Shown: in pieces, positions 5,563-51,805 of the stretch
Layout of the letters: the number at the start of each line of letters is the position of its first letter
Numbering within the stretch: position 1 is the stretch's first letter
Position numbers and translations under genes: made by a program
Notes under the pieces: model-generated
The model's database searches: none
Seen by the model: the letters and a program-made list of their open reading frames with translations, nothing else
What the model was told of the DNA's origin: nothing
Source of the DNA: Nemertoderma westbladi
Taxonomy: Eukaryota; Animalia; Xenacoelomorpha
Assembly: GCA_032718475.1 (NCBI GenBank)
Contig: JAUCBJ010007129.1
Location: forward strand, 1-64,000
Reading direction: 5' to 3'
Length of the DNA stretch: 64,000 nucleotides

Positions 5563-5777
5563 AGCACGTCTGTCGCAGTACGAGTGTGGCCGTCTGTCGC
5601 AGCACGAGTGTGGCCGTCTGTCGTAGCATGAGTGTGGCCGTCTGTCGCAGCACGAGTGTGGCAGTCTGTCGCAGCACGAGTGTGGCCGTCTGTCGCAGCA
5701 CGAGTGTGGCAGTCTGTCGCAGCACGAGTGTGGCAGTCTGTCGCAGTACGAGTGTGGCCGTCTGTCGCAGCACGAGT
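5563..5777. repeat. 24-bp minisatellite (GTCTGTCGCAGCACGAGTGTGGCC), ~9 copies
   Basis: Direct tandem units with no spacers. Confidence 0.95.
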
Positions 5778-7690
5778 ATAGAATTATATTCCCTAAATGC
5801 CGTGGATTTTCAAAATTTTTATTTTATTCGAATTAACTTTGTAAAGATTGCTTTGAGTTCTCATTAGTATTGGTTCTATCTATTGTGCACCCATCGGTCA
5901 AGTGGTTCAGTAGCTCAGTCGGTAGAGCGTTGGAAATTATATGTGTAGTAGGTATCGAGTTCGAATCCTAATAAGTGCGAATTATTTTTTGTGCAGAATT
6001 TCAACTCATTTAAATTAACCGCTACAAATTAATTGCATTTGTCTGTACCAATAAGGCTGTAGTTATTTGATTGTAACCAATGTCGTGCAAGTTATATATT
6101 AGCTGGACCAATAAGCTATCTTTAAAACCTTGTTAGAACCCATAGAACAATCGAGAATTTTCTCGATTGATTGCAGCACAAATTTAGTATATAAAGGTGC
6201 GATTCGTTCATTAGTTCTCAATCTTATATCTCAATCTTTCTCAGATTATCTTATCAATATTCTGTCGTGCTTAGTTTATTCTCAGATTACATTGTATTAT
6301 AATTGTGTCTTCTGTAATAAAGTCAGAATATTCTCTCAGCTTTTCTGTTTTACTATGAATTCACTACGGTGAACAAACTCAGGGACAGGATGGCCGGCTA
6401 GAGATCGGGCCGCAGCAATGAACGGGAACATCACGGGAATGTAGACGAGAGACAACCCGCAATACCATTTAAAGTTATTCGCCCATCGCCTGAAAGGTTA
6501 GACAGCGTTCGATCCTTGCTACCTAAGTATAAGACCAAAAGATCAAAAGGTAGACGTAGTGACACGCTGCAAGCCTAAAATTACATCATAGGGACTGTAC
6601 TGTCTTGATTCAGGAAAACCCACAGTAGACCTTCACATTCCTACGGGGGGAGGGAGAGAGAGCAGATACTAGTACGCAGATAGGACGTAGGCACACCGGT
6701 ACAAGGCATACACATTGGTTAGGGTGCAGCAAACTGTACGCTTAACTCTTGCTAAGTACAGGTGTGTGTGCGACTATTTGCCGTACAACAGTGTCCATTA
6801 CATCAGAACTTGTAGGCTAGGGGGTTGCTGTGTTTTCACCTGAATTGGGATTGTACCGTTCAGGCGGTAGGGCAGTTTACGCTAGGCGCAAATAAATTGA
6901 GGCTATCAGGGATATACTAACATCTACCGTGTCCCCGCCAACGCCCTAATAGGAAGTTACCCGGACTACCTGGGTGACTAAAATTCTAGATAGGAGCCAG
7001 GATAGCTATTAGTACCTGTACGCCTACAGTAGTAAACTAACACATCTCTTCTTAGTATCAGGGACCTGGTACCTAAAATTGCCGAATTCTGGGCGTAGTA
7101 TTAACCTTATGCCTGAATTTGAGTCCTGGAAATACGCAAGAGGGGAAGGAACCTTACCATTCGTGAGTATTGGACCTACAAGTTACAAAATTAGAATATT
7201 CGTAAAATGCACACCGTACCCAGTAATTATATATGTGAAGGAGCAAAACTGTTTTGACCGTTCAGAATTAACACACGCGCGTTAGAAATTATTTACACCT
7301 CGAAATATATAAAATTAACTTTGTCCGTACTGTGCTTTGCCCGCTAGTTAGACATCTCCAAATCTGCTCTATACCTAGCTAGCGTCCCTTTGCCCAACCA
7401 TATAAATCACACCGCGGCAAAGTATACGAGCCCCTTAGTCCGTCAGTGAGTCAGCCTGATTTTAGGATTCGCTGCGCGGGATTTGTTTTACCGAAGTTTG
7501 TCTGCTCGTAGACTGTTTTCTGCCTCACCGGTTATAAGAGATCGATACTGCAATATATTCGCTTACTTAGGGTTTACTGTTTTGGTGAGGAGGTCGGATT
7601 TATGATTTGATTTACAAACTTTACAGTAGGATATTGCAGGTATTGTTACCGTCTCTTCCGATAGTAGGAATAGGCGTATCTCTTCAATTA
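5777..7690 (+). repeat. 5' LTR of A
   Basis: Matches 26748-28685 from TATAGAATT to CTCTTCAATTA. Contains TATATAAA at ~6188 and AATAAA at ~6316. Confidence 0.93.
5904..5990 (+). promoter_or_regulatory. tRNA-like Pol III A/B box unit inside the LTR (second copy at 26874-26960)
   Basis: TAGCTCAGTCGGTAGAGC (A box/D arm), GAGTTCGAATCC (B box), then a T6 run at 5985-5990. The acceptor and anticodon stems do not pair, so this is not a tRNA gene. Confidence 0.75.
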
Positions 7691-8499
7691 GTAGGAATGT
7701 GTTTTACTGAACTCCGGTTCGGTAGGACTAAAGTTTTTTGAAAATTTTGTATTTTGAGGTAAAAATTTATATTTGATTAGCTAAGTGCTAATTTTTTGAA
7801 ATAAAATTTGATTTGAACCGCGTGTAAAATATTTTTGGAATTGAATACCGGTGTTTAAAAAGGGTTTAAATACCATATTGTACCGGTACAAAAATTTTCG
7901 TAAAGTAAAACCTAACTCTTTTGTTTTTCAGGATTCAGAACTCATTTTTAGACTGTAACGGGAGCAAGACCGTGTTTAGCAAGTTTGGGAGATAGATAAC
8001 TCAACAACTTTGGTTGGGAAAATCGCGTTTCGTCCGCAACGTTAAAAACGGAAAGGTTCACGTCCGGTTTGTATCTGGGAATCTGTTTTTCTGGAGAATT
8101 ATTGGAGTGGGTGAGTTCGAAAAGTTGCATAAATAAGTTAGGCATTACCGTATTAGTTAAAATTATTGTGGGTTCCACTGTCTCAAGTATTTATGCATTC
8201 CGTATGATTTCTTTGTTCATTGCTGAATTAGTCCGTATTATTGTATTTAATTTACCTTTTGATAACGCATATCGTTATCCGATTTATTTGTTATAAAATT
8301 GGCCGCTAGGCTAATTTTATTATATACTTATTCCGTGACATTTATTTGCTGTAAAATTGGCCGTTTAGGCTAATTTTATCCATCTGCTATAAAATCGGCT
8401 GGTAGGCTAATTTTATAAGACTGTAATTAGTACCGTTTTGTATAAATACGGTAAACTCGATACTTTGACACTCACTTTACTTGACTTACAACTACCGAA

Positions 8500-11400
8500 A
8501 TGAGTGACAAACAAGACTATACGAAGAACACACCTACCGACTATGACTCGTGTGACGCGGATAAGTCAGCAGCGGAAGGACAACAGGGGAAGACTCGCGA
8601 GCCTACCGAACCTACACCGTGTGCGTCACCGATACATCCAACGGGAGTACCGGATGCCGTAGTACGAGGCGACGGCAGGACCGAGGACTTTCTAACTGTT
8701 CCGCAACCTAGATATAGGGAAACGGAAATGGTAAGTTCAGCAGGAAGCACAGAAAGTGTGATTAGAAGCGTCGGTGGTTACATGGCGCATATAACCAGGA
8801 GTATTGGGGAAGGCCAACGCATATTAGACGAGTTGACCGCTCCGATGTCTCGATTCGAGTTCTACACCCTCCAGGTTAGAGTACAAAGTAGAGTACACAA
8901 GTCCGTAGATAACCTAATTGGTCTACAAGATCTAGCTAGACAGAGACAGGACATGGATACTCAACTTAGAATCCTCGAGAAACTGATGATCGCTAGAGAG
9001 AAACTGATTCAGTTTAAGTCGACGATTAGACAGATACAACAGGAACAAGCGGACCAGTTGTTAGGTGAGTCAGTTTCGGACGAATTATTACAACCCGAGG
9101 AAGAACAGGAACTGTACCGACTGGATGGACAATTAAAACACCTGACGGACCACTTACGCATGTGCGGGGAAGACGTCGGAGATTGGGAAACCGTGCCGGA
9201 ATATACGAGAGAAACTTCACCCGTACGAATTGAATCGGGAATACTGGACCAATCGTTGGTAAGTATTCGTAGCGAAATCTGCGAGGGAAGTATAGTCACG
9301 TCAGAAGTTGCTCGACAACAGCAAGAATTCTGCCGACAACGACGAGAAATGGAGGAACAAGCTCAACTTCTAGTGATGCAGGCAGCAGTAGAGGAAGAGA
9401 AGCTACGCGTTGCGAATATAGCAAGAATCTCTCATCTACAGGAACAAGCTGAATTAGAAGCAGCTGAAGTGGAAAGATTAGAAGTAGACATTGCCCGACA
9501 AGCGGCAGCGGCAGCGGCCGAGGTAGAACGACAAGCGGCAGCGGCAGCGGCCGAGGTAGAACGACAAGCGGCAGCGGCGGCGGCCGAGTTAGAGCGACAA
9601 AACGCAGCGGCCGAACTGGAGCGACAAACGGCAGCGGCAGCGGCGGAATTAAAACGAGAAAGGTTAGTTTCGGAAGCACGGGCCGAAATGAGAACACGGC
9701 AAATAAAAGCTCAATCTGCTATACGACAAGCAGAGTTCGAGGCGCAACGACAACAAACGGAACAACGAGAGAAGACAGTGAAACTTCATTTCGAACTCGA
9801 GAAGAAGGCGAGAGAATTAGCGAACGCCGAGGAAGATTTGGATCAAAAGGCCCGCGATCGATCGATGAGATCTCGTGACGGACATGATTTGGACCAGTTA
9901 GAGGTAAGACATCGCCAAATTCAGGAACGGAAGAAGGAAGGAAGCGTAGGAGCACCCGGACGGGAACGACAATTAGTAAAAGACGTGTGTCAACGATTCC
10001 CACAGGTAACTCATATGTTTGCACCGGTTACGACTAAGGAACCTGTTTCGATTGCGGGTAGTAGCGATATTTCTCCTATCCATGGTGCGACGGAACACAG
10101 GTTTGTTATTCCGGGCGAGTTTACACCGCCAAGAGCAACGTCGTCGCCTATTCCGAAAGTCAAGGTAAGTAACCCACCGATTACGGATCGTAGTAGTTTA
10201 TTGACCGGACCTGCGCTACTGACGACAAAACAGGTGAGTCCACCGTCGACACCTAAACCCGTTACACACTACGCTTACCCAATGACGTTTCGACCAACAA
10301 GGCCTTTGGATTCAAATGCTGTCATTCGCCCACCGTTCAACCAATTTACATCGCAATCTACGACTTCGAGGAAGACTTGTGAGCCTACCGAACAACGAAA
10401 GCGAGACGATGTTCCGAAACGAACCGTTAGAATTAGTGCGACGCAACGGACGCGAGCACGTCGACCACCATATCCAGATGATAGTAGTACTTCGAGCGAA
10501 TCGGATTACCCGAAACGCGAGGTATTTAGAACGGGGGCGGCCGATGAATATAAACGCGAGCGTTCAGACAACTCTTTTGCAGATAATCCTCCACAGAATA
10601 CACCAACACAGAAGGCGTTACAACCAACGGACGCAATTAGTACACAACAGTTCGCCGACATTCTGCGACCAGTTGTCAATAAGTTGGCTCAGATCGAGGA
10701 GCGTCTGGAGGAAGTTCAAACCGACAGTTCGAGAAATTCCGAATTCGAACACAATAGACACCCGAAGGAACCACAAAGACCGGTACCTTCAAACCCCATA
10801 TCGTATCAGGGAAAAGCGCCAAGAAGGGATATCAACCAGTGTACCAACCAAGGACGCGAAACTCTGAACGTTGCTGAGGAGATAGCAAAATTCGCAGCCA
10901 GACAGGGATTGCCGGTACAACAACCACCGAAGTTTTCCGGTAGCTCAAAACACTGGCATACCTTCGTAGACTATATCGAATCCCAGATCGCCGTGTGCGC
11001 CTTTACATCACGGGAGAAGTTCAATTACTTGCTCCAAACGTTGTCAGGAGAACCTAAACGTTTGGCGGAGACTTTCGTCGGTGTACCGGACGCTTTCGAA
11101 CTAGCGTACGATCGTTTAACTTCGATATACGGAGGTACAGTGAGCATGGCCAGGTCAGTAATAGAGGAACTCTGTAAGGGAGGGGCTATCACTAAACCCG
11201 TCGACTTACTAAAACTAGCTGACGAAATCAAGAACGCTATCACTACCTTAAGATCAATTGGACAACTTGATTACGGGAATACCCCTACAGTCCTATTAAA
11301 GATAATAGGACGACTCCACCATCGACTTCGTCGGGAGTGGAGGAAGGTCGAATACCAGCGAGAGGAGCGGGGAGGATTCTTAAAATTAGAAGATGTGTAC

Positions 11401-12084
11401 CTTTTAATATCCAGGGAGGCGGTAGTAGAAACTCGATCTAACTATACCGACCAGCACATCGTGGCAGAAGGGATCACACTGCCATCCTCCAACCGACAAA
11501 AACCCCAGACAACATCCACTAAGACGGCCACTTACGCAACACCGACGGAATCACGACAATTCTCAGACGGTAATAGAGTATCTGCGCCCATTGGGACGAA
11601 ACAGACGAGACAGCAACTCAGCATCGACTTCAACGGCTGCCAATACTGCGAGCATCTAGGTAAGCGGTATATCGGTCACAAGTTACGAGGTTGTCGACAA
11701 TTTCGCGAGTTGAACTCGGAAGAACGACGGCTGCAAATACGGCCACTGGACTCTTGTTGGCGATGTACACGACACGGACACGTGCGTAAGGATTGCCCAA
11801 ATACTGACACTTGTCCATCCTGTGGACGCAACCACGACGGTCTGCTCCACACAGACAGCCACACGCCGACGAAACGCTTCGCCAGGGAACACCCGGAAGC
11901 AGCAGCGAGATGTGATGCGGCCTACCGAAAACGAGAATCGAAAACGACTCCGACCTTCGTGACACATATTGAGGATTGCTTCTCAGAACAATCCGGATCG
12001 TCGGACGAAGAATCAGAAGACGATGACGAATATCCCAATGGAGACGAACAACCGTCGATACCTAAAGAGGTGAGGTCTCTATAG
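8500..12084 (+). CDS. gag: BEL/Pao Gag (coiled coil, DUF1759-like capsid region, triple Zn knuckle), cut off by an insertion at 12060
   Basis: PPKFSGSSKHWHTF...EKFNYLLQTLSGEPK; CQYC..H..C, CWRC..H..C and CPSC..H..LH. Confidence 0.92.
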   Translation: MSDKQDYTKNTPTDYDSCDADKSAAEGQQGKTREPTEPTPCASPIHPTGVPDAVVRGDGRTEDFLTVPQPRYRETEMVSSAGSTESVIRSVGGYMAHITRSIGEGQRILDELTAPMSRFEFYTLQVRVQSRVHKSVDNLIGLQDLARQRQDMDTQLRILEKLMIAREKLIQFKSTIRQIQQEQADQLLGESVSDELLQPEEEQELYRLDGQLKHLTDHLRMCGEDVGDWETVPEYTRETSPVRIESGILDQSLVSIRSEICEGSIVTSEVARQQQEFCRQRREMEEQAQLLVMQAAVEEEKLRVANIARISHLQEQAELEAAEVERLEVDIARQAAAAAAEVERQAAAAAAEVERQAAAAAAELERQNAAAELERQTAAAAAELKRERLVSEARAEMRTRQIKAQSAIRQAEFEAQRQQTEQREKTVKLHFELEKKARELANAEEDLDQKARDRSMRSRDGHDLDQLEVRHRQIQERKKEGSVGAPGRERQLVKDVCQRFPQVTHMFAPVTTKEPVSIAGSSDISPIHGATEHRFVIPGEFTPPRATSSPIPKVKVSNPPITDRSSLLTGPALLTTKQVSPPSTPKPVTHYAYPMTFRPTRPLDSNAVIRPPFNQFTSQSTTSRKTCEPTEQRKRDDVPKRTVRISATQRTRARRPPYPDDSSTSSESDYPKREVFRTGAADEYKRERSDNSFADNPPQNTPTQKALQPTDAISTQQFADILRPVVNKLAQIEERLEEVQTDSSRNSEFEHNRHPKEPQRPVPSNPISYQGKAPRRDINQCTNQGRETLNVAEEIAKFAARQGLPVQQPPKFSGSSKHWHTFVDYIESQIAVCAFTSREKFNYLLQTLSGEPKRLAETFVGVPDAFELAYDRLTSIYGGTVSMARSVIEELCKGGAITKPVDLLKLADEIKNAITTLRSIGQLDYGNTPTVLLKIIGRLHHRLRREWRKVEYQREERGGFLKLEDVYLLISREAVVETRSNYTDQHIVAEGITLPSSNRQKPQTTSTKTATYATPTESRQFSDGNRVSAPIGTKQTRQQLSIDFNGCQYCEHLGKRYIGHKLRGCRQFRELNSEERRLQIRPLDSCWRCTRHGHVRKDCPNTDTCPSCGRNHDGLLHTDSHTPTKRFAREHPEAAARCDAAYRKRESKTTPTFVTHIEDCFSEQSGSSDEESEDDDEYPNGDEQPSIPKEVRSL

Positions 12085-13284
12085 GGGTGTCGACAGCAGG
12101 CGGCGGTGGACTCGTGAGGGTCTGGGGGCACGTTAAATTGTTGTTATAGTGCAAGGGAGTCACTGAAGGCCCTCGTGTCTAACGAACCATGAATTGCCAT
12201 GGTGCCGTGGTACCGTCTAGTCGGCCTGTTGCCGTACTGCCAGTCCTGTACACAGTAGGGGTGGTGGCATGGCGTGATTTGTGGCTCATGTGGCGTGAAC
12301 TATGTTTTGTATGTGGGCGATCAGTGGCAGTTTGCTTGGGGCTTGGATGGTTCCATTGGCCGTCAGCTGTTCCGTTTTTTTGATACTATATGTTATTGTC
12401 TCCATGTTCAGCTGATTGGTCTTTGGTGGCATTGGAAAAACCGTCGGGTCTTGAGCTTTCTGTTACTGTGGGTACGTGAGTACACGTGATTGTATGTGTG
12501 GCCACTGCGAGTGGGTATGGGAACCCTTGCCAGTTGGACAAGACGCCGCTGGTATTAGTAGGACCATACTTTACTGCACCCCAGCATACTTTGTGCACAC
12601 AAAGTTATTTTACCCTGTCGGTAAAATAAAGTACTCTCGACTCTTTTCGAGTTTCAGTCGATACAATTTTGTCCCCTCTGAATTTGTCCCTTCCGATTTT
12701 GACCCCGATTTTGTCTTTACCCGATTATGTCCTCTGTGTGTGCATGGTATGTGTCAGATTTTGTGTTTACCGTAGTGTACTTGATTTCGTGAACATCTGT
12801 TGAAGTACACGTGTACAGGACGGGTAAGTGGTTACTTGTTTCTAGCTTTCGAGCTAGTCAGTATTGTTGAGGAACGGTGTCCCCTCAATACTGCCGGCGA
12901 GGCAGGTGAAAACGAGTCAAAATTCCATGTTGGGTAGCGCAAGCCCACGTGGGACAAGACCGTCGGTTAGGCCCAAGGGCGACCTTGGTGCTCGATCGCT
13001 ATCGACTGGTCCACCTGCCGGTTGACTCTTTGTTATACTTTGAGTTGGCTCAATGTACAGTCAGGCCACAGTAAGTTGACAGTAGCCGCCCATCTGGCTA
13101 CACGTTCGACGAGCTGTGCTGGTGTGATCGGGGGACCGAAAACAGAACCCGGGAAGCATCAGGCCACCCTCCGGCCCGGTCTGATAATAACATCTGTCGG
13201 ACTGGCCCCAGGGGTGGTGGAAAGGTGTTCGCCTCATGGGTGCGCCTCGGAGTCATCAGAGAGGAGCCCAGAAGGACACAAGCG
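12060..13284. other. 1.2-kb unidentified insertion at the gag/protease junction
   Basis: The duplicate copy reads CCGTCGAT|CGCGCTCCTG without interruption at 17160/17161. Confidence 0.8.
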
Positions 13285-16200
13285 CGCGCTCCTGACCACT
13301 GACCAACTGAAGGGATTCAGTGTAATCCCGATTAAGATCACTGGCACAAAGGGGAGTAAGAGGATCTACGCGATTCTAGATTCAGCCTCATCTCACAGTT
13401 ACGTGGATGAAAAGATAGCTGACGTCGTGACGGATCTCAGACAAGGTAAACACGTCAGTTATACAGTAAGTAGTATGCACGGACAGCGTGCAATACCAGT
13501 GACACGAGTTAAGTTGGACTTAGACTCTCTTCTTCCAAAATCGCAACACAGCGAGAGGGAGAGGTCTTTGTTACCCTTTAGAGATCTAACCTTTGCGGCC
13601 ACGAAGGACTTTAGTAACCTACTAGGTCCAGTGCCGGAACAATCTCTGGAGGACCGTAAGTATTTCAGACACCTTGGTGTACCCGAATGTCCTGTCAATT
13701 ATAGATCGGTAGCAATGCTGATCGGGACGGACCAATTCAACCTACATCAGGTGTGGGAAACCAGACCATCGGCAGTTGTAGCAGGAAACGCATACGCCTG
13801 CAGAACGCCGATAGGGTGGTATACACGAGCGCCTGTGCGCACACTAGACGTAAGTGACGAGGAAGACGATGTACAGAGTACATGCAGTTTATTAACTACA
13901 AACTCAATTCATTCCTTTTCACACGACGTGAACCATACTACACTACAGTCGACAAAACATCACAGACGTGTAACTAGTATGATAAGTCACAAGGAGCAGC
14001 TAACCCACAAGGTGAGTTTAGGACTTGGGGGGAAGACGAGTCAGCTAGAGATTCCATCGACGACAGATGATAGGCTTGCGAGTCTACCTACCCCAATAAC
14101 CTCAACAGTGCCCGTCGATATCGATGATGACGCGTTGAAAATTCATCAGTTGGAACAAGCCGCCTTGGACAAAGAATTAACGGAGAAGACTATCAGGTGG
14201 TTAGAACAAGATACAGCTGAACCTGGTAGCTACGAACCTTGTATGTCGGAACAGGAGAAACAATCCCTAAAGATCATGGAGGATACTATCCGACAGACGG
14301 AGGACGGACATTACGAGGTGGGGATGTTATGGCGTAGCCAAAGTCCTAAACTTATAAATAACTACCCACTGGCTTTAAGACGTCTACACTCAATACGACA
14401 ACGTCTATTAAAGGACGAGAAAGCCCATCTGCAGTACAACACTCAGATGGAGACGTATTTGACTGAAGGATACGCTATCCGAATGACTAACCCGGAGCGA
14501 GTGACCGACCAGACATACTACCTGCCACATCACTATGTGAGACACCCCGACAAACCAGATAAAGTACGCGTAGTCAATGATTGTGCGGCTCTATTTGAGG
14601 TTAGAGTTGGACATTGCACAACAAGCGGCAGCGGCCGAGTTAGCGCAACGAACAGCAGCGGCCGAGTTAGAGCGACAAGCGGCAGCGGCCGAGTTAGAGC
14701 GGCAGCGGCAGCGGCCGAGTCAGCGGCAGCGGCAGCGGCAGCGTCCGAGTTGGAGCGACAGAGGTTAGCTTCAGAAGCGAGAACCGAAATGAAAAAACGG
14801 CAAATAAAGGCTCAATCAGCTATACGACAAGCGGAGTTCGAGGCGCAACAACAACAAACGGAACAACGCGAGAAAGAAGTTAAACTTCGTTTCGAACTCG
14901 AGAAGAAGGCGAGAGAATTAGCCAACGCCAAGGAAGACCTGGATCTACAAGCCCGCGATCGATCGATGAGATCTCGAGACGGACATGACTTGGACCAGAT
15001 AGAGGTAAGACATCGCCAAATTCAGGAACGGAAGAAGGAAGGAAGCGTGGGAGCACCCGGACGGGAACGACAATTAGTAAAGGACTTGTGTCAACGATTC
15101 CCACAGGTAACTCATATGTTTGCACCGGTTACGACTAAGGAACCTGTTTCGATTGCGGGTAGTAGCGATATTTCTCCTATCCATGGTGCGACGGAACACA
15201 GGTTTGTTATTCCGGGCGAGTTTACACCGCCAAGAGCAACGTCGTCGCCTATTCCGAAAGTCAAGGTAAGTAACCCACCGATTACGGATCGTAGTAGTTT
15301 ATTGACCGGACCTGCGCTACTGACGACAAAACAGGTGAGTCCACCGTCGACACCTAAACCCGTTACACACTACGCTTACCCAATGACGTTTCGACCAACA
15401 AGGCCTTTGGATTCAAATGCTGTCATTCGCCCACCGTTCAACCAATTTACATCGCAATCTACGACTTCGAGGAAGACTTGTGAGCCTACCGAACAACGAA
15501 AGCGAGACGATGTTCCGAAACGAACCGTTAGAATTAGTACGACGCAACGGACGCGAGCACGTCGACCACCATATCCAGATGATAGTAGTACTTCGAGCGA
15601 ATCGGATTACCCGAAACGCGAGGTATTTAGAACGGGGGCGGCCGATGAATATAAACGCGAGCGTTCAGACAACTCTTTTGCAGATAATCCTCCACAGAAT
15701 ACACCAACACAGAAGGCGTTACAACCAACGGACGCAATTAGTACACAACAGTTCGCCGACATTCTGCGACCAGTTGTCAATAAGTTGGCTCAGATCGAGG
15801 AGCGTCTGGAGGAAGTTCAAACCGACAGTTCGAGAAATTCCGAATTCGAACACAATAGACACCCGAAGGAACCACAAAGACCGGTACCTTCAAACCCCAT
15901 ATCGTATCAGGGAAAAGCGCCAAGAAGGGATATCAACCAGTGTACCAACCAAGGACGCGAAACTCTGAACGTTGCTGAGGAGATAGCAAAATTCGCAGCC
16001 AGACAGGGATTGCCGGTACAACAACCACCGAAGTTTTCCGGTAGCTCAAAACACTGGCATACCTTCGTAGACTATATCGAATCCCAGATCGCCGTGTGCG
16101 CCTTTACATCACGGGAGAAGTTCAATTACTTGCTCCAAACGTTGTCAGGAGAACCTAAACGTTTGGCGGAGACTTTCGTCGGTGTACCGGACGCTTTCGA

Positions 16201-19200
16201 ACTAGCGTACGATCGTTTAACTTCGATATACGGAGGTACAGTGAGCATGGCCAGGTCAGTAATAGAGGAACTCTGTAAGGGAGGGGCTATCACTAAACCC
16301 GTCGACTTACTAAAACTAGCTGACGAAATCAAGAACGCTATCACTACCTTAAGATCAATTGGACAACTTGATTACGGGAATACCCCTACAGTCCTATTAA
16401 AGATAATAGGACGACTCCACCATCGACTTCGTCGGGAGTGGAGGAAGGTCGAATACCAGCGAGAGGAGCGGGGAGGATTCTTAAAATTAGAAGATGTGTA
16501 CCTTTTAATATCCAGGGAGGCGGTAGTAGAAACTCGATCTAACTATACCGACCAGCACATCGTGGCAGAAGGGATCACACTGCCATCCTCCAACCGACAA
16601 AAACCCCAGACAACATCCACTAAGACGGCCACTTACGCAACACCGACGGAATCACGACAATTCTCAGACGGTAATAGAGTATCTGCGCCCATTGGGACGA
16701 AACAGACGAGACAGCAACTCAGCATCGACTTCAACGGCTGCCAATACTGCGAGCATCTAGGTAAGCGGTATATCGGTCACAAGTTACGAGGTTGTCGACA
16801 ATTTCGCGAGTTGAACTCGGAAGAACGACGGCTGCAAATACGGCCACTGGACTCTTGTTGGCGATGTACACGACACGGACACGTGCGTAAGGATTGCCCA
16901 AATACTGACACTTGTCCATCCTGTGGACGCAACCACGACGGTCTGCTCCACACAGACAGCCACACGCCGACGAAACGCTTCGCCAGGGAACACCCGGAAG
17001 CAGCAGCGAGATGTGATGCGGCCTACCGAAAACGAGAATCGAAAACGACTCCGACCTTCGTGACACATATTGAGGATTGCTTCTCAGAACAATCCGGATC
17101 GTCGGACGAAGAATCAGAAGACGACGACGAATATCCCAATGGAGACGAACAACCGTCGATCGCGCTCCTGACTACTGATCAACTGAAGGGATTCAGTGTA
17201 ATCCCGATTAAAGTTACTGGCACAAAGGGGAGCAAGAGGATCTACGCGATTCTAGATTCAGCCTCATCTCATAGCTACGTGGATGAAAAGATAGCTGACG
17301 TCGTGACGGATCTCAGACAAGGTAAACACGTCAGTTATACAGTAAGTAGTATGCACGGACAGCGTGCAATACCAGTGACACGAGTTAAGTTGGACTTAGA
17401 CTCTCTTCTTCCAAAATCGCAGCATAGCGAGAGGGAGAGGTCTTTGTTGCCCTTTAGAGATCTAACCTTTGCGGCCACGAAGGACTTTAGTAACCTACTA
17501 GGTCCAGTGCCGGAACAATCTCTGGAGGACCGTAAGTATTTCAGACACCTTGGTGTACCCGAATGTCCTGTCAATTATAGATCGGTAGCAATGCTGATCG
17601 GGACGGACCAATTCAACCTACATCAGGTGTGGGAAACCAGACCATCGGCAGTTGTAGCAGGAAACGCATACGCCTGCAGAACGCCGATAGGGTGGTATAC
17701 ACGAGCGCCTGTGCGCACACTAGACGTAAGTGACGAGGAAGACGATGTACAGAGTACATGCAGTTTATTAACTACAAACTCAATTCATTCCTTTTCACAC
17801 GACGTGAACCATACTACACTACAGTCGACAAAACATCACAGACGTGTAACTAGTATGATAAGTCACAAGGAGCAGCTAACCCACAAGGTGAGTTTAGAAC
17901 TTGGGGAGAAGACGAATCAGCTAGAGATTCCATCGACGACAGATGATAGGCTTGCGAGTCTACCTACCCCAATAACCTCAACAGTGCCCGTCGATATCGA
18001 TGATGACGCGTTGAAAATTCATCAGTTGGAACAAGCCGCCTTGGACAAAGAATTAACGGAGAAGACTATCAGGTGGTTAGAACAAGATACAGCTGAACCT
18101 GGTAGCTACGAACCTTGTATGTCGGAACAGGAGAAACAATCCCTAAAGATCATGGAGGATACTATCCGACAGACGGAGGACGGACATTACGAGGTGGGGA
18201 TGTTATGGCGTAGCCAAAGTCCTAAACTTATAAATAACTACCCACTGGCTTTAAGACGTCTACACTCAATACGACAACGTCTATTAAAGGACGAGAAAGC
18301 CCATCTGCAGTACAACACTCAGATGGAGACGTATTTGACTGAAGGATACGCTATCCGAATGACTAACCCGGAGCGAGTGACCGACCAGACATACTACCTG
18401 CCACATCACTATGTGAGACACCCCGACAAACCAGATAAAGTACGCGTAGTCAATGATTGTGCGGCTCTATTTGAGGGAATGTCCCTCAATAGTGAGTTGA
18501 TGGATGGACCGAACATGAATAATTATCTTATGGGGGTGATTATGCGCTTCCGTCAGCGCCAAGTAGCCTTTACTTGCGACGTTGAAGCGATGTTTCACCA
18601 AGTAAAAGCGTTAGAGCGAGACAGAGACAGTTTGCGGTTTCTCTGGTATCCGGAAGGGGACTTAAGTCTACCACCAGCGACTTACCAAATGCAAGTTCGC
18701 GTTTTCGGTGCCAGAGACAGCCCAAATTGTACGATGTACGCCTTGAAGCAAGCCGCTAGAGATCAGAAACATCTGTATGACCCAGAGATAATTAGAATTG
18801 TAGAACGTGACTTTTACGTTGATGACGGATTACAGAGTTGCGACACAGTAGAACGTGCTACAACAGTAGCACATCAATTACGGGACTGCTTGGCGGGCGG
18901 AGGTTTTAACCTCACCAAATTCGCCTCAAACAGTGCCGAATTAGTTGACTCATTCGGAACTACTGAGCGTGGAGGTGGTGACATAGACCTAGAGTTCGAA
19001 CCACTACCGACGACTAAGGTGTTGGGGCTCTTTTGGGACCCAAACACAGACAACTTTCGAGTGAAGGTGAGACTGGACAGTCAAGGAAACACACTGACCA
19101 AGAGATCATGCTTGTCAAAATTGAGCCGATTGTTCGATCCGTTAGGATTCATCAGTCCAGTGATACTGCAAGCCCGCATTTATATGCGCAGTATATGGAA

Positions 19201-19957: not shown

Positions 19958-20130
19958 CTTCAAAGGTCAAGAGAGGAAGACTTGCGAGCCTTTCTACACC
20001 AGACATATCGCCAGACGGTCAACCAGACACGTTACCAGACGGTCAACCAGACACGTTACCAGACGGTCAACCAGACATTCTACCAGACGCTAGTAACGTA
20101 CTGACAAACAGTAAAGCCGCAGTTTCCCTA

Positions 20131-31386: not shown

Positions 31387-31460
31387 CCGCTCCCAGAAAA
31401 TGGGATTTAATTCTATAAAATATAATAAGTCACAGTCACAAGTCTAAAATATAAAAATAC

Positions 31461-38000: not shown

Positions 38001-39107
38001 CCGCTTCTACCGCCGCCGCTGCCGCTTTTCTTTCCGCTTCTACCGCCGCCGCTGCCTCTTTTCTTTCAGCTTCTGCCGCTGCCGATGCCGCTGCCTTTCT
38101 GTCTTCTATCTGCTTTTTCTTTAGTTGCACTTCTTGGACCCTAGCGATGCGGATTCTTTCATCAAATTTAGCTCACTCCGTGGCTAACATTTCCGCATCT
38201 AACGAGTCTAACACAAATTTGGCTCCCTCACTATTAGGGTGAAATCCAGCTAGCCGTCTCCTTAACTCTTTGTCACCTATAAATCGTTGATAGTCCGACA
38301 GATAGATGTCAATAGCGTCTTTCTTCTGAGGTTTCTCTGATGTCGCTTCGCTTTCCACCTGAGAAAAGGTAGCATCTGTTGACTCTCCGTGGGTCGCGCG
38401 CTCAGTTAGGGGGTTGTTGAAACAGTTGTTCCTCTAATCGCTCCAAAGAGCTGAAGAATCCCTGTACATATCCTGCTGCCGACCTCTTCCACACAGCTGG
38501 ATCTCTAGTGTCCTTTACCACTCCCATCCTGTATAAGTCCTCCCAGGCAACTTCCGATAAGTTAAATGGGAGTCCGGGTCCGGGGAAGTTCCATTGCGTC
38601 TCGACAATAGACCTTAATTCCTCCATCGTATATCCCACATAACTGTCCTTGGTCGATCGCTTACTTCTCGCCCAATCGATTTGATGTTCTTCCACCGCAA
38701 TCAATACTCTAGTGAGTACAGCTCCCAGAAGAATTAGAAGTGGATCTGGATAAACCGCTTCTGCCATCTTTGCTCCGATCTCGGGTGTCAACTCTACAGT
38801 GTCTGAACTACTGGAGTTATCGGGCCGTTGAGAAATAAGTTCCCGGTTCGGGTGCTGCTGCTGCTGCCTCTTGGTCCCGCTTGACTTGAGCCCTAGTGCC
38901 TATGATAGACCAATGGTGCTCTACTAGCCTAGGGTCTGACACTACTACTGTAGGGATGACCTTTCTTACAGTAGGAGGGGACTTGGACTTTGGTCTCAGA
39001 CGTTCTATACTCTTAGCTGAGTCCCAGATCTTTTTAAGACCCTGTCTAACACTCATTCTAACACTTTCTAAGAGACTATCTGACAGTGTTTGTTTTGTGT
39101 CAGACAT
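35054..39107 (-). pseudogene. gag: gag-protease of B1 (frameshifted)
   Basis: KFNGDEMKWLPF..EKLRLLIECLEG, CVLC/CYNC/CAKC knuckles, ALLDSGS. Confidence 0.9.
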
Positions 39108-39254
39108 GTTTGATTGTACAGTTGAATGCCTACTACTATAACGACAGTTAAAGCAAGTCTAGTAATTCAGTATCAACTGCAAGCCTAGTAATTAATTACC
39201 GATACTGTTACTCAGTGTAACGTGATATATATACAGATATATAATATGTTAGAA

Positions 39255-39630
39255 TACCGGTATACACTTATAGTATATATAAGAATTATTACAGACTAGA
39301 ATTAGTCACAGAATACCGGTATATAATTTCAGCATAAATTTATATAAATATATATAATAAGCCTACCGTAAATACCAGTATACAGCATACACTTATAGTA
39401 TATATAAGAATTATTACAGACTAGAATTAGTCACAGAATACCGGTATATAATTTCAGCATAAATTTATATAAATATATATAATAAGCCTACCGTAAATAC
39501 CGGTATACAGCATACACTTATAGTATATATAAGTATTTATACAGACTAGGATTAGTCACAGAATACCGGTATATAATTTCAGCATAAATTTATAGAAATA
39601 AATATAATAAGCCTATCGTAAATACCGGTA
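39255..39630. repeat. ~125-bp unit x3 in the B1 leader
   Basis: ATACACTTATAGTATATATAAG...AATACCGGTA is repeated; B2 has one unit. Confidence 0.8.
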
Positions 39631-41208
39631 ATGTCAATTATTTTAGAATAACTGAATTTCTGAATTTTAGGGTTACTTTCCTTTACTTTATTACTGTTAT
39701 TAAGCAGTAGCCCAACTGATATTAAGACCTAATTAATGTATAACAGGCCTACTATTTTATAAATCGGTTTGAGTTGATTTATAATATATATATACCCGTA
39801 TAATGGGTTTTTGTCAATGTTTGAAATAAATGTTATTATTTCTGGTGAGGAGTCACTACACAGAAGCTGAACGCTCTCAGTGGAGTGCTTCCTGTTAGAC
39901 ACTAAAACAAATAATTCTACTTTACTAAGTTACTTATTACTACAAATTACATACAATTACTGTGTTGTGTGAGATTACAATCTCTAAATAAACACCAAAA
40001 ATTACACATACAAATTTTAGGATAATTTTACAGGAAATCTACAAACCAGCCTAACAAGGAGTTAGAATTTCTGGTTCTTACAAACGGACAGGAAACTACG
40101 GTATTTGATAATAATTAAGCAGTAGTAAATATATTGCTTTGTCCAGATAAGAAAATACAACCGTCTGATGACTTATAGTCTTTAGCTCTACAGCTCTATA
40201 AGTACTACGTTATGTACCCGGAGTGTCCTTACCTAGAAGTTAATTACCGCAGCCAACCAGAGCTAACGTGCCTATTAACCACTTTACAACACAAATATAC
40301 TGCCTATACACTAATTACCTTCGGAAAGTACTGTACACTAAACCCTAAATTAGGTACAAGTACTTATACAACAAATAACCAGCAGTTAAATATACTTATA
40401 CAGCTAAAAGAACCACGGTATCTGCTGGAATAACTAGAGCATAAAATCACCAGTCTTTACCTACGCCAAGCAGCCCTGATGTAGTACCGGGGTTAATTTA
40501 ACTATAACGGTATGTATAACAAGCACAATTACTGTAGCAATAAACTTGGGGAGTTATGTAGGTTGCGAATACTCGCATAGACTCGTGAATAATAAATATT
40601 ACGCTACCCGTGCAGACTACACAAACAAAATACAGACCAAACGCTGGCAGACTACTATCAAGCCTTAATAAACTACAGTATATGCAGACTCCGAAATGGT
40701 TAGTTAGTAGGCGTTCTAACCGAGTAGTACGACTTATTCTTTTGGGAGGGATTTACCTTACAGCACTGGATGCCCCCACCTTCCTAACTAGTACTTTATC
40801 AGACATACACTCTATACACACTGCAATCTCTTCAGACCCAACAACAGTCAGACAACAATCCAGCCTACAAATTATTTATACAATCTGAGCAGGCTTACAC
40901 GCCTTCTGCTCAATATTACTTACAGATAAATAAAACTGACAGAAATAAGTAAAATCCCAATAAAAAACCAGGGCTGCAGTCCCTGATTAAATATCAAGAC
41001 CTACCGGTATATAATTATCAAAATCGAATAATACCTGTTCGTACCTGTAAGTACCGGTTCAGGTAGTTGGGCAGTTAGGCCTACAGCTTACCGTTCGACC
41101 GGTACCTTCGACTTTATTGCCTACGTTTAAAACTTTAGCGAACTTTATAGCGAGTTTAAAACTATTAATGTTCTTACAAGAACATTAGACAATTTGTAAA
41201 ACTATTAA

Positions 41209-42441
41209 TGTTCGCGCTTTTAGACCTTTAGCAGTTTAACCTGCCAATTTTAATTGTCTTTTTTGTATATCAATTATTTAATGTACTGAAGTTACATCAG
41301 CTGAAGCCAGCCTGTGCGCGACCATTCACCCACAGTTAAGGGAGACTGGATTCGGATGCTTTGATAGTGATTGCAGTGTAGACCTACTGTATTATTCAAT
41401 TGATCGTTAATATATAATCTCTGACAATATATTTACTTTCGGGGAAATATTAACAGTTCCTTTAGGACGTGGCACTTTAAGTATAAAACAGAGTTATGAC
41501 TTATACTAATCACAACTGGATGGCTACTGAGTTTCGTAAAAAGTGCATTCTTTAGGAGATGCTTTATTAACCTTCACACTACTTCACACGACTTCACACT
41601 AGTTCACACTACTGCGCACTGATCTGCCGACCGTCACTGAATTTGATCATATATAAGGAGGATCGCAACTGACACATGTAGGGATTATGAAATAACATTT
41701 AATTCACACAAAAACCACTATAATGTAAGTCGCAGTTGCTACCGGTAAACCTGTTCCTCTAACCTTTAGTAATCAAGAAGATTGGGGGTTTTATGATTAT
41801 TCATCGGTATTCTCCAAATATATCAGCAATATACACCAACATAACACCAATTAATAACAGAATCAAATAATGCGGTGAACAGTCAGTATGTGTTACTTAT
41901 GCAGTGTTCCATGTGCGGCAATGTTGACTTGCGGTGTGATGCGGTGTGTTGCGTAGTTGAATTGTGTTGCTTTTCAGTGATTCAGATATGAAGTATGATT
42001 CAGTTAATAGTTTTACTTTCTTGTAATAAAAGCCATCTGATGTTTCTGATGTTTAGGTCAAAGTCTGAAACTTCCAACACAGAAGTACAGAAGAATTTCC
42101 AAGCAGTTCTCTCGCTCAGAAAGGTAAACTAAGACCGTAATGCATTGCGCGGTTTTCCGTAGGCCTCTGTACAAGATAAAATGAAAATCGCTCTGATTAG
42201 CTGAGCTGAGCGAGCTGAACAAAGAGATGTTCCACGTTTACAGTAAATCAGCTGACAGATTTCGTCATCTGAGTTCCAGTCTTTTAGAGTATTAAGCGCA
42301 TTGCGGCAGAAAATGGCTTGTTATGTCCGCTAAAACACCCACACGGTACATTGCGGAGAAAATGGCTTGTTATGTCCGCTAAAACACCTACACGGTATAT
42401 TGCGGAGAAAATGACTGGTTATATCCGCAAAAGCTTTTACA
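41209..42441 (-). repeat. 5' LTR of B1
   Basis: Highly similar to 30113-31386. Confidence 0.95.
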
Positions 42442-46255: not shown

Positions 46256-47430
46256 TGTTCGCGCTTTTAGACCTTTAGCAGTTTAACCTGCCAATTTTAG
46301 TTGTCTTCTTGTTTATAAATCGACTTTAGCCTAGACCAATTATTTTATGTACTGAAGTTATATCTGCCGAAGCCAGTCTGTGCGCGATCATTCACCCACG
46401 GTTAAGGGAGACTGGATTCGGGTGCTTTGACGTTATTGCGGTGTAGACCTACTGTATTATTCGATTGATCGTTACTATATAATCTCTGACAAATATATTT
46501 ACTTTCGGGGAAATATTAACAGTTCCTTTAGGACGTGGCGCTTTAAGTATAAAAACAGAGTTATGACTTATACTAATCACAACTAGATGGCTAATGAGTT
46601 TTGTAAATAGCGCATTCTTTAGGAGATGCTTTATTATCTGTCACACTACTGCACACGACTTTACACTACTGCACACTGATCTGCCGACCGTCACTGAATT
46701 TGATCATATATAAAGAAGATCGCAACTGACACTTGTAGGGATTATGAAATAGCATTTAATTCACACAAAAACCACTATAATTTAAGTCGCAGTTGCTAGC
46801 GGTAAACTGTCCTCTTACCTTCAGTAATCAAGAAGATTGGGGGTTTTATGATTATTTATCGGTATTCTCCAAATATAACAACATATCCAACAATATACAA
46901 CAATTAATAACAGACAGTAAGCAGAAGTAAATAATGCAGTGAAAAGTCACTGCATTTATTTATTGGTTTAGTATGATATGCAGTGTCCAGCAGGTTCATC
47001 AGGTTGATATGACAATATGAGAATAGATTTACGTTCCGTAATCAAAGCCATCAGATCTTTAGGCAAAGTCTGAAACTTCCACCACAGAAGTAACAGAAGA
47101 TTTCCAAGCAGTTCTCTTCGCTCAGAAAGGTAAACAAAGACCGTAATGCATTGCGCGGTTTTACATAGGCCCTTGTCCAACATAAAATGAAAATCGCTCT
47201 GATTGGTTGAGCCGAACAAAGAGAGGTTCCACGTTTACAGTAAATCAGCTGACAGATTTCGTCATCTGAGTTCCAGTCTTTTAGAGTATTAGGCGCATTG
47301 TTGGCTTGTTATGTCCGCTAAAGCACCTACACGGTACATTGCGGAGAAAATGGCTTGTTATGTCCGCTAAAGCACCTACACGGTATATTGCGGAGAAAAA
47401 TGACTTGTTATGTCCGCAAAAGCTTTTACA
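46256..47430 (-). repeat. 3' LTR of B2
   Basis: Same termini as the B1 LTRs, with an adjacent PPT. Confidence 0.93.
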
Positions 47431-47508: not shown

Positions 47509-50500
47509 TTAGTCCGTCTTACGCGAACGGCGTTTACGCAGTTTTTTGAGGCTAGCAAGAGTCCTTTTCTCTTTGGGGCAAGCCACTTTACTAGGAGGGC
47601 TATAACTCCTGGGTGAAGGGTGCAATACAATTGCATCGGAAGGTTTAGGGTTACGGTCGGTGTATCCGCCGGTCGAGGTACCCGGTTGATTGATATCAAC
47701 CTCAGCGGAGCGAGGTTGAACAACCCCCAGAGCGCGTTTCAAGACAGCAGCTCTTACTGGTCCCTGACGAGTCGTCTGCACGAGAGCGGTAGGTGGACCG
47801 TGAGTAGTGAGAAATTTCCTCAGTTTGATGGTTCTTTCTAACTCGCGTTCTCGGGCTCTATATTCATAGGGTCGTCTATGAACTTCCTGTAGTTCTGGAT
47901 GCGAGTTGATGAACAAGTCACCATATTCAGGATCTTGATGGATGAAGTTGATCAAGTTATAGGAATTAAGATCATTGGGATTAATGTTCCTGAGATATTT
48001 ACGAACAAATTTGGTCGAAATATTCTCGCCAACACGCTTCATTAGTTCGTAACTCGGTGTGCGAGATTTTTGTTCAACGGACGCGAATAGATACGGGTGA
48101 AACGCATAAACTCACTCATAAGCATGTCCAGGGTAATATCCAGACGTGACTCACAATGTAGATCCGCGTTCGCTTCCCAGGCTCGAATATAGTGTAAGGT
48201 AATCATTTCATCTACGCTTTCCAGATCTCGGTTGAAAGGGCAATCAAAACTTGCATGTCCTTTAAACTGACAATGATGGCATTGAGTCATAAATTGGGGG
48301 CAGACTGCAAAAATGTGCAAGTTATTGAGTCTACAATATGCACAATAGATCTCCATCGTAGGTTGTTCATGGAAGTAGGAACAGGGTACGTTGGAGTCCA
48401 CCGGGGTGAAATGGTCTCGAGATGCACACAATCGACAACGTTTCCTAGAAACATAATTGGCATGCCGATAATCGTAAGCGGTGAGGCATTGTGGACCTTG
48501 ATACCATTCCAGGACGTAGTCATTGTCACTGCTCCGGGGCGCTGTGGGCTGGATCTCCTCGGATTCTAAGCATATTGGTTCGTCTTCCAATCGCATAGCT
48601 GAGGTAGGTGTAGCTGTCTCCTCAAGCGAACCCAGTGTCTGAACTTCCACGATAGAATAACCCGTGGGGATTCGGGGTCTTTGTATAACAGAGGAATGTA
48701 AGTTCTGTATACCAACGTCCTTGAAAATGGCGAATCCAGCGCTGTCTAACTTCTCAGCAGCTGAGTCTCTTAGGCTGAGCTTGGTCAGAGCGCGGTCCTT
48801 GAACTGACTATCAACGTTACGGAACGGAGTCAGAAAGCGCCTAAAGCATTCGAAGCGGATGAATTTATTGTGTTCATCTAGCTTGGCGAGTTTGGTTCCA
48901 AGTATCAAGGGATGGGTGCGTATAGTACGACTGCACACATCGGCTAGCCAACCGGCAAGTGTGGCGTTCTCGAAGATAGTGTATATAGCTAATGAGGGAC
49001 AAAGGGGAACACTCATGAAGCTATACACGACGCCAGGTGTGGTCAATGGTCCATCGAAGTATAATAGAGAATAATGATCTCCATATACTTGTTGATAGTT
49101 GATAGGGTTTCCGACTTTGAAATTCCATCTGTATTCTTGGAAGGCAAGATGTCCGATGGATGTTCGTTGTACTTTATTGATGCCGCTGGGTGTATTGGCA
49201 TACATAGTTCGGAAGAAACCTCGGCCTTCTGCCCAGGGAGCAATCAGCTGGGTGTCTACGAAAGGATATGGGATATTCTCCATATTCCTGAAGTCGTTTT
49301 GGAGATCTCCATAAACAGCTGAGCCGAATTTAAAGGATTCTTTCGTTAAACAACATCTCGAGCACTGGCTGGGGTAACATCGATCCATCTATACCCATGG
49401 CCAGTTTACGCTCAGTATCGGTGACGTAACGCTGTGCGAGTTCGAATTGTCCATGTCGGAGTTTCTTTTGTATCTCGGTGAGAGTCTCAAAGGAATAATC
49501 AATCACATCGGAACACGCTCGAGTAAACACGTGAGTAGAACCAGCTAGCCCTCGTATATGTATCATGCGCGACGCGCATGATACATATACGAGGGCTAGC
49601 TGGTTCTACCCACGTAGTTCCCAGTTCTCCAACAGGAATGCTACCTTCGTTATCGTAAGTGACAACTCCATACATTTCGATAACGTTAAGAGTTTCGTTC
49701 CACTCTTTAGTGGCGTTTTCTAGGGTCATCCCCACCGGATGCCACAAGGTGGCACATTCGCTAGCGTTAGGTAGATCCCTATACTTCAGATATTGTGTAG
49801 TATACGTCTCTACATCTCCATATCGTTGTATTCTCTCTTCCTCGAATAATACGTCGAGATTCCAGTGGACTAATCGAGTTTCAATAAATCCATCGAGATT
49901 ATACGGAGGCATTATATCCTTCTCTATTCTGGAAACATTGTAGGGCTTTCTGAATGAGTTTACTTTCACTAACTGATCCAGATGTTTCTGCAGTTGTTCA
50001 AGTTCGACAAGATCGAGGGGATTTATTAGTGGTAGAAACCTTAGACTATGTGTAGGATCTTCCGGTATTACCATATAATATTGAGTTAGATTGACATAAT
50101 AAGGGTGGTCTTTGATCCCATAAAACGAGTTCGGTAAAGGTCTAGCGCGTATGTTGACCTCGCGTACCATACGACGGACAAGATCTGCTCGATTGTCCGG
50201 AGGTTCAACGAGTATACCGTCGATACGAGCGGCCTCGATTGGCGGACGTTGCAACATAGGAGCGTCAGCGATAAGATCACGAGATCTTAGGTTGATATCA
50301 ACCGGTTGGGGTTGTACCGTGGCGAAGAGTTTGTCTCCGAAATGGGGAACCATCGAGGGATGACGGATGGTTTTGGAATAGAGATCAGTCATAAGGATTT
50401 GAGCTTCAGGTTGGGCTAAAGCTGCTTCTTCTCTCTCACCCATTTCGATGTGTTTCTCCTCGAGCTGATTTTCCTCCGCTTGTCATTGGAAGCGTTCATC

Positions 50501-51805
50501 TAAAAACTCTTGTAGAGAATAGGTTCGTCCAAGTTCGATGTCTTCCTCGAGGTTTTGGATTTCTCGATCGAACTGGGGTAAGGCCAATTCCTTTACTGCT
50601 TGGACTTGCTGCTGCAACTTACGTTTCTCCAAACAATCATAAGTTCCTTTTCCGATCTTCTGTTGAATAGCGTCTAACGCGTTTCGTACAACGCTCTTCT
50701 CGACTTCGGTGACGGGTTGTATCGGGGTCAAACCGGGACGATTATACGGGTTGAACGGCGAGATTAGATGTCCGCGTCCTAATCCGGCTAGGTAGGATGG
50801 GCGAATATCTAGAGAGCCCACTACCGGAGTGCCACCGATTAATTGTTCGGGTAACACGAGATCTTTGAACAGCGAGTACAGTTCAGGAGGATCCGTTATA
50901 CTATTACGATCAAGAGTTTGAGGTCTCACTAAGGAATGAGGAGGTCTGACTGAGTATTCTGGAACTCTGATCATCGGTTTATTTAAGGATCGTTTGAGTC
51001 GAGCGAGCGTAGGTGATACGTCGAACAAGTTTCGCTCGAAACTCCCGTAAGTATAGCGAGTAAAACTGTGTTTAGCGCAACGTCTCCGCGGATGTTTATG
51101 TCTTTCCATTTGCTGGTTGGGTCTAGGGCATTCATCGCAATAATACCAAAGACGCACGTCCTGTAGGGGAAACGCGGGTGATCATTCTCCAGTTTTACAA
51201 TATTCCTCCATTTGTTCGAAGCTTTCCGGGACAACAGGTAGCAGTCGATCGGCGGTAAGATAAATCATAGTGAAATAGAGCCGTTTGAGTTCCATCATAG
51301 GGTCATGATGTATACCTTGAGGATATCGAATTTCTAGATTTTGTTGACTGGCTATATTGAGATATGTTTCTCTCAAGAATTCCAGATATTCGTTGAAGTT
51401 ACTGCGTTTATCTGGCTCTTCAACGTCTTCTCTTTCGAGTTGGTTGTGAATAGAATTTTCGTGTTCTATTCTCGGTTTATCGTTCCGACTCCGCTGGGTA
51501 TGATATTTAAATATAACCATGTCCCTTTCGGTGTCTACATCGTCCGTATCGTGTAAATCGATAGGATGACCAGTAGTTAAAAAGTCCATATACGTACCAT
51601 TACAATGCGTATAGCGAGCGATGAATTTTCTATAGTCTAATTCACGCGTGAGCTGTTACTTTGACATTGGCGGTTCGATATAACGGCCATCGTCTTCCGT
51701 AGTGGGTGGACTAGCGTCGCCGCGTATTAAACTATCAACAAACGCTTGCAATGGTAGGGTATATCGCTCCCTGATACCAAGATCATCTTCTATCAACTCA
51801 GTCAT
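47509..51805 (-). pseudogene. ORF3 of B2: CxxC..CxxH region, DEDDy-like exonuclease, Zn knuckles, basic tail
   Basis: TYDNEG (49643-49660), MLPQPVLEMLFNERIL/KFGSAVYGDL, FVDTQL, YTIFE; then CRLC..H, CAYC..H..C and CHHC..H..C. Several frameshifts and stops. Confidence 0.8.

Follow-up and report, generated by a model that had tools for sequence, protein, structure and literature searches.

Self-complementary primer-binding sites and an exonuclease-like third open reading frame in BEL/Pao retrotransposons of Nemertoderma westbladi

Introduction

How might an LTR retrotransposon begin reverse transcription when its primer-binding site (PBS) is the complement of a segment of its own LTR, and would a nuclease encoded by the same element have any part in it? 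These questions are raised by positions 1 to 64,000 of contig JAUCBJ010007129.1 of Nemertoderma westbladi (assembly GCA_032718475.1), a 64,000-nucleotide stretch that was analysed whole and is referred to here as the window. The original prediction for this DNA was that an encoded 3'-5' exonuclease would trim an LTR-derived RNA annealed to such a PBS, in place of both tRNA priming and the RNase H cut of Tf1.

Self-priming has been reported for Tf1/sushi, Tcn1 and TAR (PMC6317226, PMC7175516), as a prediction in the Tcn1 and TAR lineages (PMC6317226). For BEL/Pao elements, the ICTV profile of the Belpaoviridae describes an 18-nt PBS for tRNA-Arg/Gly, LTRs of 0.2-1.2 kb and genomes of 4.2-10 kb, with a third gene that is at most env-like, and calls their replication poorly understood and tRNA-primed (PMC8742986); the size range is likewise given elsewhere (PMC3118150). 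A DEDDy-type ORF3, for which 3'-end processing was suggested, is known from the Juno/Vesta elements of bdelloid rotifers (PMC5408684, PMC6338049).

Four related BEL/Pao elements

Self-comparison together with domain scans resolves the window into four related BEL/Pao LTR elements, named A to D (Table 1). What had been taken originally for a single second element, B, proves to be two copies merged, position 51805 being the ORF3 start codon of C. The two LTRs of A have diverged by 0.58% substitutions, and no matching target-site duplication was found at its flanks. Its interior is rearranged by a 5.1-kb internal duplication, a 1.2-kb insert and breaks that split pol; discounting the duplication leaves a unit of ~17.8 kb. 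B has lost RT, RNase H, most of the integrase and the exonuclease-like domain, and the 5' LTR and PBS of C lie outside the window. No tRNA genes and no Rfam matches were found within the window.

Table 1. Features of the four elements in the window. ORF3 residue numbers are counted from position 22601.
Element	Feature	Position	Strand	Remarks
A	Element overall	5777-28685	+	
A	5' LTR, 1914 bp	5777..7690	+	Termini TA..TA rather than TG..CA; self-comparison
A	Candidate GT..AG intron	6497..7931	+	Removes primer-like segment and PBS together
A	Primer-like LTR segment	6634..6644	+	Complements PBS; second copy ends at 27635
A	PBS, 11 nt	7691..7701	+	Without TGG; exact complement of 6634-6644
A	12-bp hairpin directly past PBS	7701..7728	+	z -3.6
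A	gag-pol	8500..22052	+	DUF1759, protease, RT with YVDD, Pao RNase H, integrase, DUF5641
A	Second GGAGCGG, central PPT-like	22166..22172	+	In pol/ORF3 interval
A	ORF3, intact, 1048 aa from first ATG	22712..25858	+	Cx2C..Cx2H motif and DEDDy-like domain
A	DEDDy-like domain	24083..24790	+	D508, E510, D598, Y703, E707
A	PPT GGAGCGG	26741..26747	+	Directly before 3' LTR
A	3' LTR, 1938 bp	26748..28685	+	
B	Element overall	42441-30113	-	
B	5' LTR	41209..42441	-	Termini TG..CA
B	Primer-like LTR segment	42016-42004	-	
B	PBS, 13 nt, then hairpin	41160..41208 (PBS 41208-41196)	-	Complements 42016-42004
B	Internal region	31387..41159	-	Leader, gag-protease, ORF3 N-terminus
B	PPT GGAGCGG	31393-31387	-	Directly before 3' LTR
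B	3' LTR	30113..31386	-	5-bp target-site duplication CCCCT
C	Element overall	62019-46256	-	Fuller relative of B
C	gag-pol and part of leader	53517..62019	-	
C	ORF3, broken	48042..51805	-	Stops and frame changes within DEDDy-like domain
C	PPT GGAGCGG	47437-47431	-	Directly before 3' LTR
C	3' LTR	46256..47430	-	
D	5' LTR with leader	2110-1	-	Absent from original prediction
D	5' LTR (2110-1021), primer-like segment, PBS, hairpin	971..2110	-	
D	Primer-like LTR segment	1793-1782	-	
D	PBS, 12 nt	1020-1009	-	Complements 1793-1782

The family assignment is based on domains that stand in PR-RT-RH-IN order between the LTRs (DUF1759, Peptidase_A17, DUF5641), the Peptidase_A17 matches having E values of 8e-42 and 8e-35. 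The same domains rule out a gypsy-type RT lineage such as that of the Tf1/sushi chromoviruses. The RT-RNase H region returned 2860 matches at E<=1e-50, with PF05380 present in 120/120 among the matches listed, and is ~41-46% identical to its relatives, among them elements of marine invertebrates and fish. In an RT-RNase H tree of 37 rows (A, C, 15 of 120 proteins and 20 of 80 metagenome loci; midpoint root, no outgroup), A and C group at 100/98, on long branches.

That A and B belong to one clade had been proposed from a shared polypurine tract (PPT), long LTRs and long leaders. These marks are indeed present: GGAGCGG precedes the 3' LTR of A, B and C, the LTRs measure 1.1-1.9 kb (1.1-1.3 kb in B, C and D), and the leaders ~0.8 kb in A and ~2.1 kb in B. 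With 14 copies of the 7-mer in the window, it is the position and not the presence that is informative; a second copy lies in the pol/ORF3 interval of B (33708) and C (52493) as it does in A. The common clade is supported by the shared ORF3 and by the RT-RNase H tree, whereas the LTRs give it no support, those of A and B having no DNA similarity to one another.

Set beside the Belpaoviridae profile (PMC8742986), these elements agree in their DUF1759 gag, Peptidase_A17, DUF5641 and domain order, and B in its 5-bp target-site duplication. They depart from it in carrying an exonuclease-like ORF3, in having a self-complementary PBS in place of the tRNA-complementary one in 3/3 visible cases, and in size, A exceeding both limits with a unit of ~18 kb and an LTR of 1.9 kb.

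PBSs complementary to the LTR

All three PBSs visible in the window (A, B and D) are the exact reverse complement of a site within the element's own LTR, and in each the complement begins at the first base past the 5' LTR. The 3' end of a primer made from that site would thus pair with the first base past the LTR, the geometry that priming requires; it had been predicted, and it is right in all three elements. The matches in A and B had also been recognised originally and are exact, and D adds a third case. Under a first-order model the expected numbers of chance matches are 4.3e-4 for A, 1.1e-4 for B and 1.9e-4 for D. A TGG near the LTR end, with which a tRNA-type PBS would start, was found in none of the three.

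The three PBS sequences all differ. Between B and D, four of the 12 pairs differ in both members and no pair is lost, and cross-pairing of one element's segment with the other's PBS would preserve 8/12 only; the 13th position is a mismatch in D. Past each PBS there follows a hairpin of 9-16 bp, with z values of -3.6 in A and -2.9 in both B and D. An extended duplex between the 5' flank of the segment and the leader was considered and set aside, as the same leader bases make the local hairpin.

Because the complements are exact, because four pairs have changed in a compensatory manner with none broken, and because a hairpin lies past each PBS, we regard self-priming as such, independent of tRNA, as very probable for these BEL/Pao elements on the strength of their sequences. 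The case for it is stronger than when it was first made, through the compensatory changes, the third element and the post-PBS hairpin.

When the whole 5' region is folded, the LTR-PBS helix forms in B (P ~0.79) and not in A or D, an observation that tells against self-priming with a cut of the Tf1 type.

ORF3 as a DEDDy-like protein

The ORF3 of C, which bears extra C-terminal zinc knuckles, can be compared with that of A in pieces that are ~24-37% identical, and D508, E510, D598, Y703 and E707 are all kept. The ExoI DxE (D508/E510) and the ExoII Asp (D598) fall in register with an RNase D-like profile, with weak scores, and ExoIII, placed by eye against the alignment, reads YxxxE in both A and C, not YxxxD. 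In a language-model search of the ESM Atlas, PF01612 appeared in 24/30 matches and, with a second query, in 29/30 named ones; the top score was 0.92, where 4-10 of 100 shuffled proteins also attain 0.9, and the queries are not independent of each other. Profile comparison gave a score of 21.4, above 60/60 column shuffles (best 18.4) and also above reversed and RT decoys.

Other approaches returned little. ORF3 has no Pfam match, and no homologue was found in protein searches, contigs or PDB sequences, plasmids giving one chance match. An HMM built from 85 DEDDy domains of bacteria and phages missed it among 631 window segments (E>10), the hhalign probability is just 3-6%, and two AlphaFold predictions have a pLDDT of 31, too low for fold comparison. 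These results favour the view, separate from the question of priming, that ORF3 is not an active exonuclease, being either unrelated or an inactive DEDD-fold RNA-binding protein; Maelstrom and EXD1 are described as proteins of the latter kind. Against it stand the ExoI and ExoII motifs in register, the profile score, the PF01612 matches of the language-model search, and the retention of four acidic positions and the tyrosine between such distant copies, so that we consider it unlikely. ORF3 is instead probably a DEDDy-fold protein and is likely to be a DEDDy-type 3'-5' exonuclease, as judged from its motifs. The encoded exonuclease of the original prediction accordingly keeps its motifs and gains a PF01612 lead, but Pfam, the purpose-built HMM and the predicted folds gave no confirmation.

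As in Juno/Vesta, ORF3 is a separate third ORF past pol, with a DEDDy-like domain, an altered catalytic set, a Cys/His motif and an activity that is predicted (PMC5408684). The rotifer motif is DEED, as against D-E-D-E here, a comparison made from the published description; the main text of that report contains neither 'PBS' nor 'priming', and Juno/Vesta are not described as BEL/Pao elements (PMC5408684).

Co-occurrence of ORF3 and the self-complementary PBS

Only A carries both traits in one copy, since B has a visible PBS and has lost the exonuclease domain, and C has a broken ORF3 with its PBS outside the window. B was rejected as a refuting case of a PBS without exonuclease; it also lacks RT and is non-autonomous. 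For an outgroup we surveyed the best 80 of 457 confirmed BEL/Pao stretches in metagenomes, none of which gave an ORF3 match at E<=1 (0/80). A long-range repeat was present in 33 of these loci and both repeat ends lay inside the contig in 14; two (L118 and L129) were dropped, their repeat end not being an LTR end, and 12 were scored. These 12 represent 10 distinct PBSs, with four LTR ends shifted 1-3 nt by eye and one (L096) uncertain.

Among the 12, the longest anchored Watson-Crick match within the element was 7 nt, and neither a post-PBS hairpin nor a TGG start of the PBS was found (0/12 each). The absence of TGG from 12/12 indicates that the tRNA-type PBS is not a family-wide trait. A TGGAGCG before the repeat in L110/L111 was discounted as a PPT, the start of the repeat being contig-limited. 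No autonomous relative with one trait alone was found among the window elements and the 12 scored outgroup elements. The predicted co-occurrence thus holds in that both traits lie within the lineage and neither in 12 distant relatives, but this is a single contrast with no statistical power. On that one contrast, the coupling of ORF3 with the self-complementary PBS fits a model in which the exonuclease acts in priming; ORF3 accompanies both self-complementary lineages, as trimming would predict.

Position of the primer-like segment in the transcript

The ends of the candidate intron of A consist of a donor motif and a strong acceptor (branch point, pyrimidines, CAG). One contig of sequencing run X2 joins 6496 to 7932, with 26 letters on the short side of the joint at a likeness setting of 80, and 0/3 other runs do so. 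X2 is listed as 'DNA?'; we take it to be RNA-derived from its splice joint, from contigs that depart at 6496 and at 6498, and from one contig for which 14 A>G changes are listed between 7233 and 7350. Together these are a weak hint that the intron is real. If it is, the same hint would have the spliced mRNA start upstream (TATA at 6188) and lack both segment and PBS, and would have the genomic RNA either start upstream too, making the segment internal, or use a second start that coincides with the segment; in Tf2, alternative starts have a governing role (PMC5341516). In Tf1 the RNA begins with its 11-nt primer, whereas the segment of A may be internal and intronic, which tells against a Tf1-like cut.

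All four LTRs have a splice-donor motif, which in B, C and D follows the segment by ~200-250 nt. Each segment starts at or beside a pyrimidine-purine step, which could be a start site. Past the segment there is an AATAAA in A (6891) and in B (41568), and none was found at the matching place in D; in all models polyadenylation has to occur beyond the segment.

How the primer may be made

The reading that we favour, at a probability of about one half, is that these elements prime from their own RNA with a primer freed by one cut of the element's RNase H, as in Tf1, and that ORF3 acts elsewhere. The LTR segment would be part of R, or stand at an alternative start site, and would anneal to the PBS, the post-PBS hairpin delimiting the duplex. 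Cleavage on the 3' side of the segment would leave a 3'-OH facing the LTR end, and minus-strand DNA would then jump to the 3' R. ORF3 would be an accessory nuclease for RNA or DNA 3' ends, whose candidate jobs are to remove flaps during strand transfer, to proofread an 18-kb unit, or to counter silencing; we know of no exonuclease gene in Tf1-type elements. This reading is preferred because release of an 11-nt primer by RNase H is the route demonstrated in Tf1 (PMC7175516), because the 11-13 nt duplexes agree with that length, because RNase H motifs and catalytic residues are retained in A and C, and because a short primer would give plus-strand synthesis a natural stop. The sharp boundary at 11-13 nt would also suit a primer with a fixed 5' end. 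Cutting of an RNA duplex by the element's RNase H is a step that the reading has to suppose.

Trimming by ORF3 would place the exonuclease at the centre of a third priming route: the segment would lie in R, a copy of it carried by the 3' end of the genome or by a short LTR transcript would anneal to the PBS, and ORF3 would remove the tail as far as the hairpin-bounded LTR-PBS duplex. The geometry fits, structured RNAs have their 3' ends processed by RNase D-type DEDDy enzymes, and a role in 3'-end processing has been proposed for the rotifer ORF3 (PMC5408684). The zinc knuckles of C and the AATAAA of A and B are in keeping with it, although D has no such signal; the occurrence of both traits in the A and B/C lineages, as against ORF3 in 0/80 and a self-complement longer than 7 nt in 0/12 metagenome loci, also agrees, although one lineage set against a distant outgroup carries no statistical power. 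Besides poly(A), the enzyme would have to take away RNA that is largely base-paired (its mean unpaired probability is 0.31-0.40) and that measures ~270 nt in A and ~450 nt in B, its predicted catalysis has yet to be supported and its ExoIII has Glu, and a long primer would give plus-strand synthesis no natural stop. The kept RNase H residues and the Tf1-like duplex length point away from it, as does the documented self-priming of other LTR groups without an exonuclease. We therefore consider trimming improbable and favour the RNase H cut over it. Less likely again is a 3'-OH made by the host, through cleavage and polyadenylation, through a by-product of splicing (the excised intron, for example) or through host exonucleases, which would make RNase H and ORF3 dispensable. 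The segment of A does lie inside a candidate intron and the donor motif is general, but the segment stands upstream of the donor in B, C and D, so that the intron route cannot be general. Marginally less probable still is that the LTR-PBS pairing is structural or regulatory, masking the PBS or shaping the leader, and that the true primer is a host RNA. The 12 outgroup elements, having neither a TGG-type PBS nor a self-complement, suggest that this branch may often use non-canonical host primers; however, each of three PBS sequences is an exact match to its own LTR, counted from the first base, and co-varies with it, and a fixed host primer should have kept the PBSs of B and D constant.

Significance

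The elements described here resemble Tf1/sushi, Tcn1 and the copia elements TAR/Houba/Osr-1 in that an LTR segment of 11-13 nt exactly complements the PBS, with no tRNA (PMC7175516, PMC6317226, PMC5341516). Those elements are gypsy or copia, whereas these are BEL/Pao, and the post-PBS hairpin and ORF3 are additional to the Tf1-type arrangement. No published self-priming or exonuclease ORF in BEL/Pao was found in a literature search whose scope stopped short of most subscription papers and Repbase entries, and the combination of self-priming with an exonuclease-like ORF3 appears to be unreported in this superfamily.

If the reading of the covarying, self-complementary PBSs is true, they would carry self-priming into a third LTR superfamily, and the exonuclease-like ORF3 would reach a second. 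What DEDDy ORFs do in retrotransposons has been an open question ever since the rotifer description; in A a candidate substrate (LTR segment, PBS and hairpin) shares the element with an intact ORF3, which makes the matter testable on short RNAs. Should trimming make the primer, it would be a new way of starting reverse transcription; should it not, ORF3 may explain how these elements come to be about twice the usual length.

LTR signals and termini

The splice-donor motif AG/GTWAG is found in the LTRs of all four related BEL/Pao elements (A–D; 4/4), and in element A it lies 180 nt downstream of an AATAAA at position 6316, a spacing that could suppress the AATAAA signal. The LTR of A is bounded by TA..TA rather than TG..CA, and a near-duplicate of the LTR-end/PBS junction sits within its LTR end (7650–7701). 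In one contig of sequencing run X2 (listed as "DNA?", RNA inferred), A>G differences from A's LTR are clustered at 7233–7350, the contigs of the three other runs being largely free of them; the pattern is reminiscent of what ADAR would produce by editing LTR RNA in double-stranded form.

Neighboring repeats and ORFs

A 24-bp tandem array (5568–5777) directly abuts A's 5' LTR, and a short element with 35-bp inverted ends (28826–29120) lies close by its 3' LTR. The 1.2 kb insert within A has no long ORF. The interval between B and C holds a 405-aa ORF (42836–44053) without a Pfam match. Also present are a MITE-like element (44319–45366) with inverted arms of ~350 bp that are 97–98% complementary, a fragment matching RVT_1 and DUF6451 (4140–5270), likely the remnant of a non-LTR retrotransposon, and, at the window end (62870–64000), tandem arrays of 52-bp and 12-bp units.

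Post-LTR and internal motifs

Four distant BEL/Pao loci from metagenomes share a non-TGG motif with a GTTCGAATTTG core 3' of the LTR, for which no self-complement was found in any of the four.

Coordinates of LTR, insert and motif features
Feature	Element or locus	Position
Donor motif	A	6495
Donor motif	B	41765
Donor motif	C	46820
Donor motif	D	1586
1.2 kb insert, first copy of duplicated gag-pol stretch	A	12060–13284
Extra GGAGCGG	A	22166
Extra GGAGCGG	B	33708
Extra GGAGCGG	C	52493
GTTCGAATTTG-core motif	L105	1113–1130
GTTCGAATTTG-core motif	L114	998–1015
GTTCGAATTTG-core motif	L116	56–73
GTTCGAATTTG-core motif	L146	2773–2790

In A, B and C, the PPT sequence GGAGCGG recurs between pol and ORF3, the third ORF, which in A and C bears a DEDDy-like domain. 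Two candidate readings present themselves for this internal copy: it may be a central PPT, or else the leftover of an older 3' end that predates the acquisition of ORF3.
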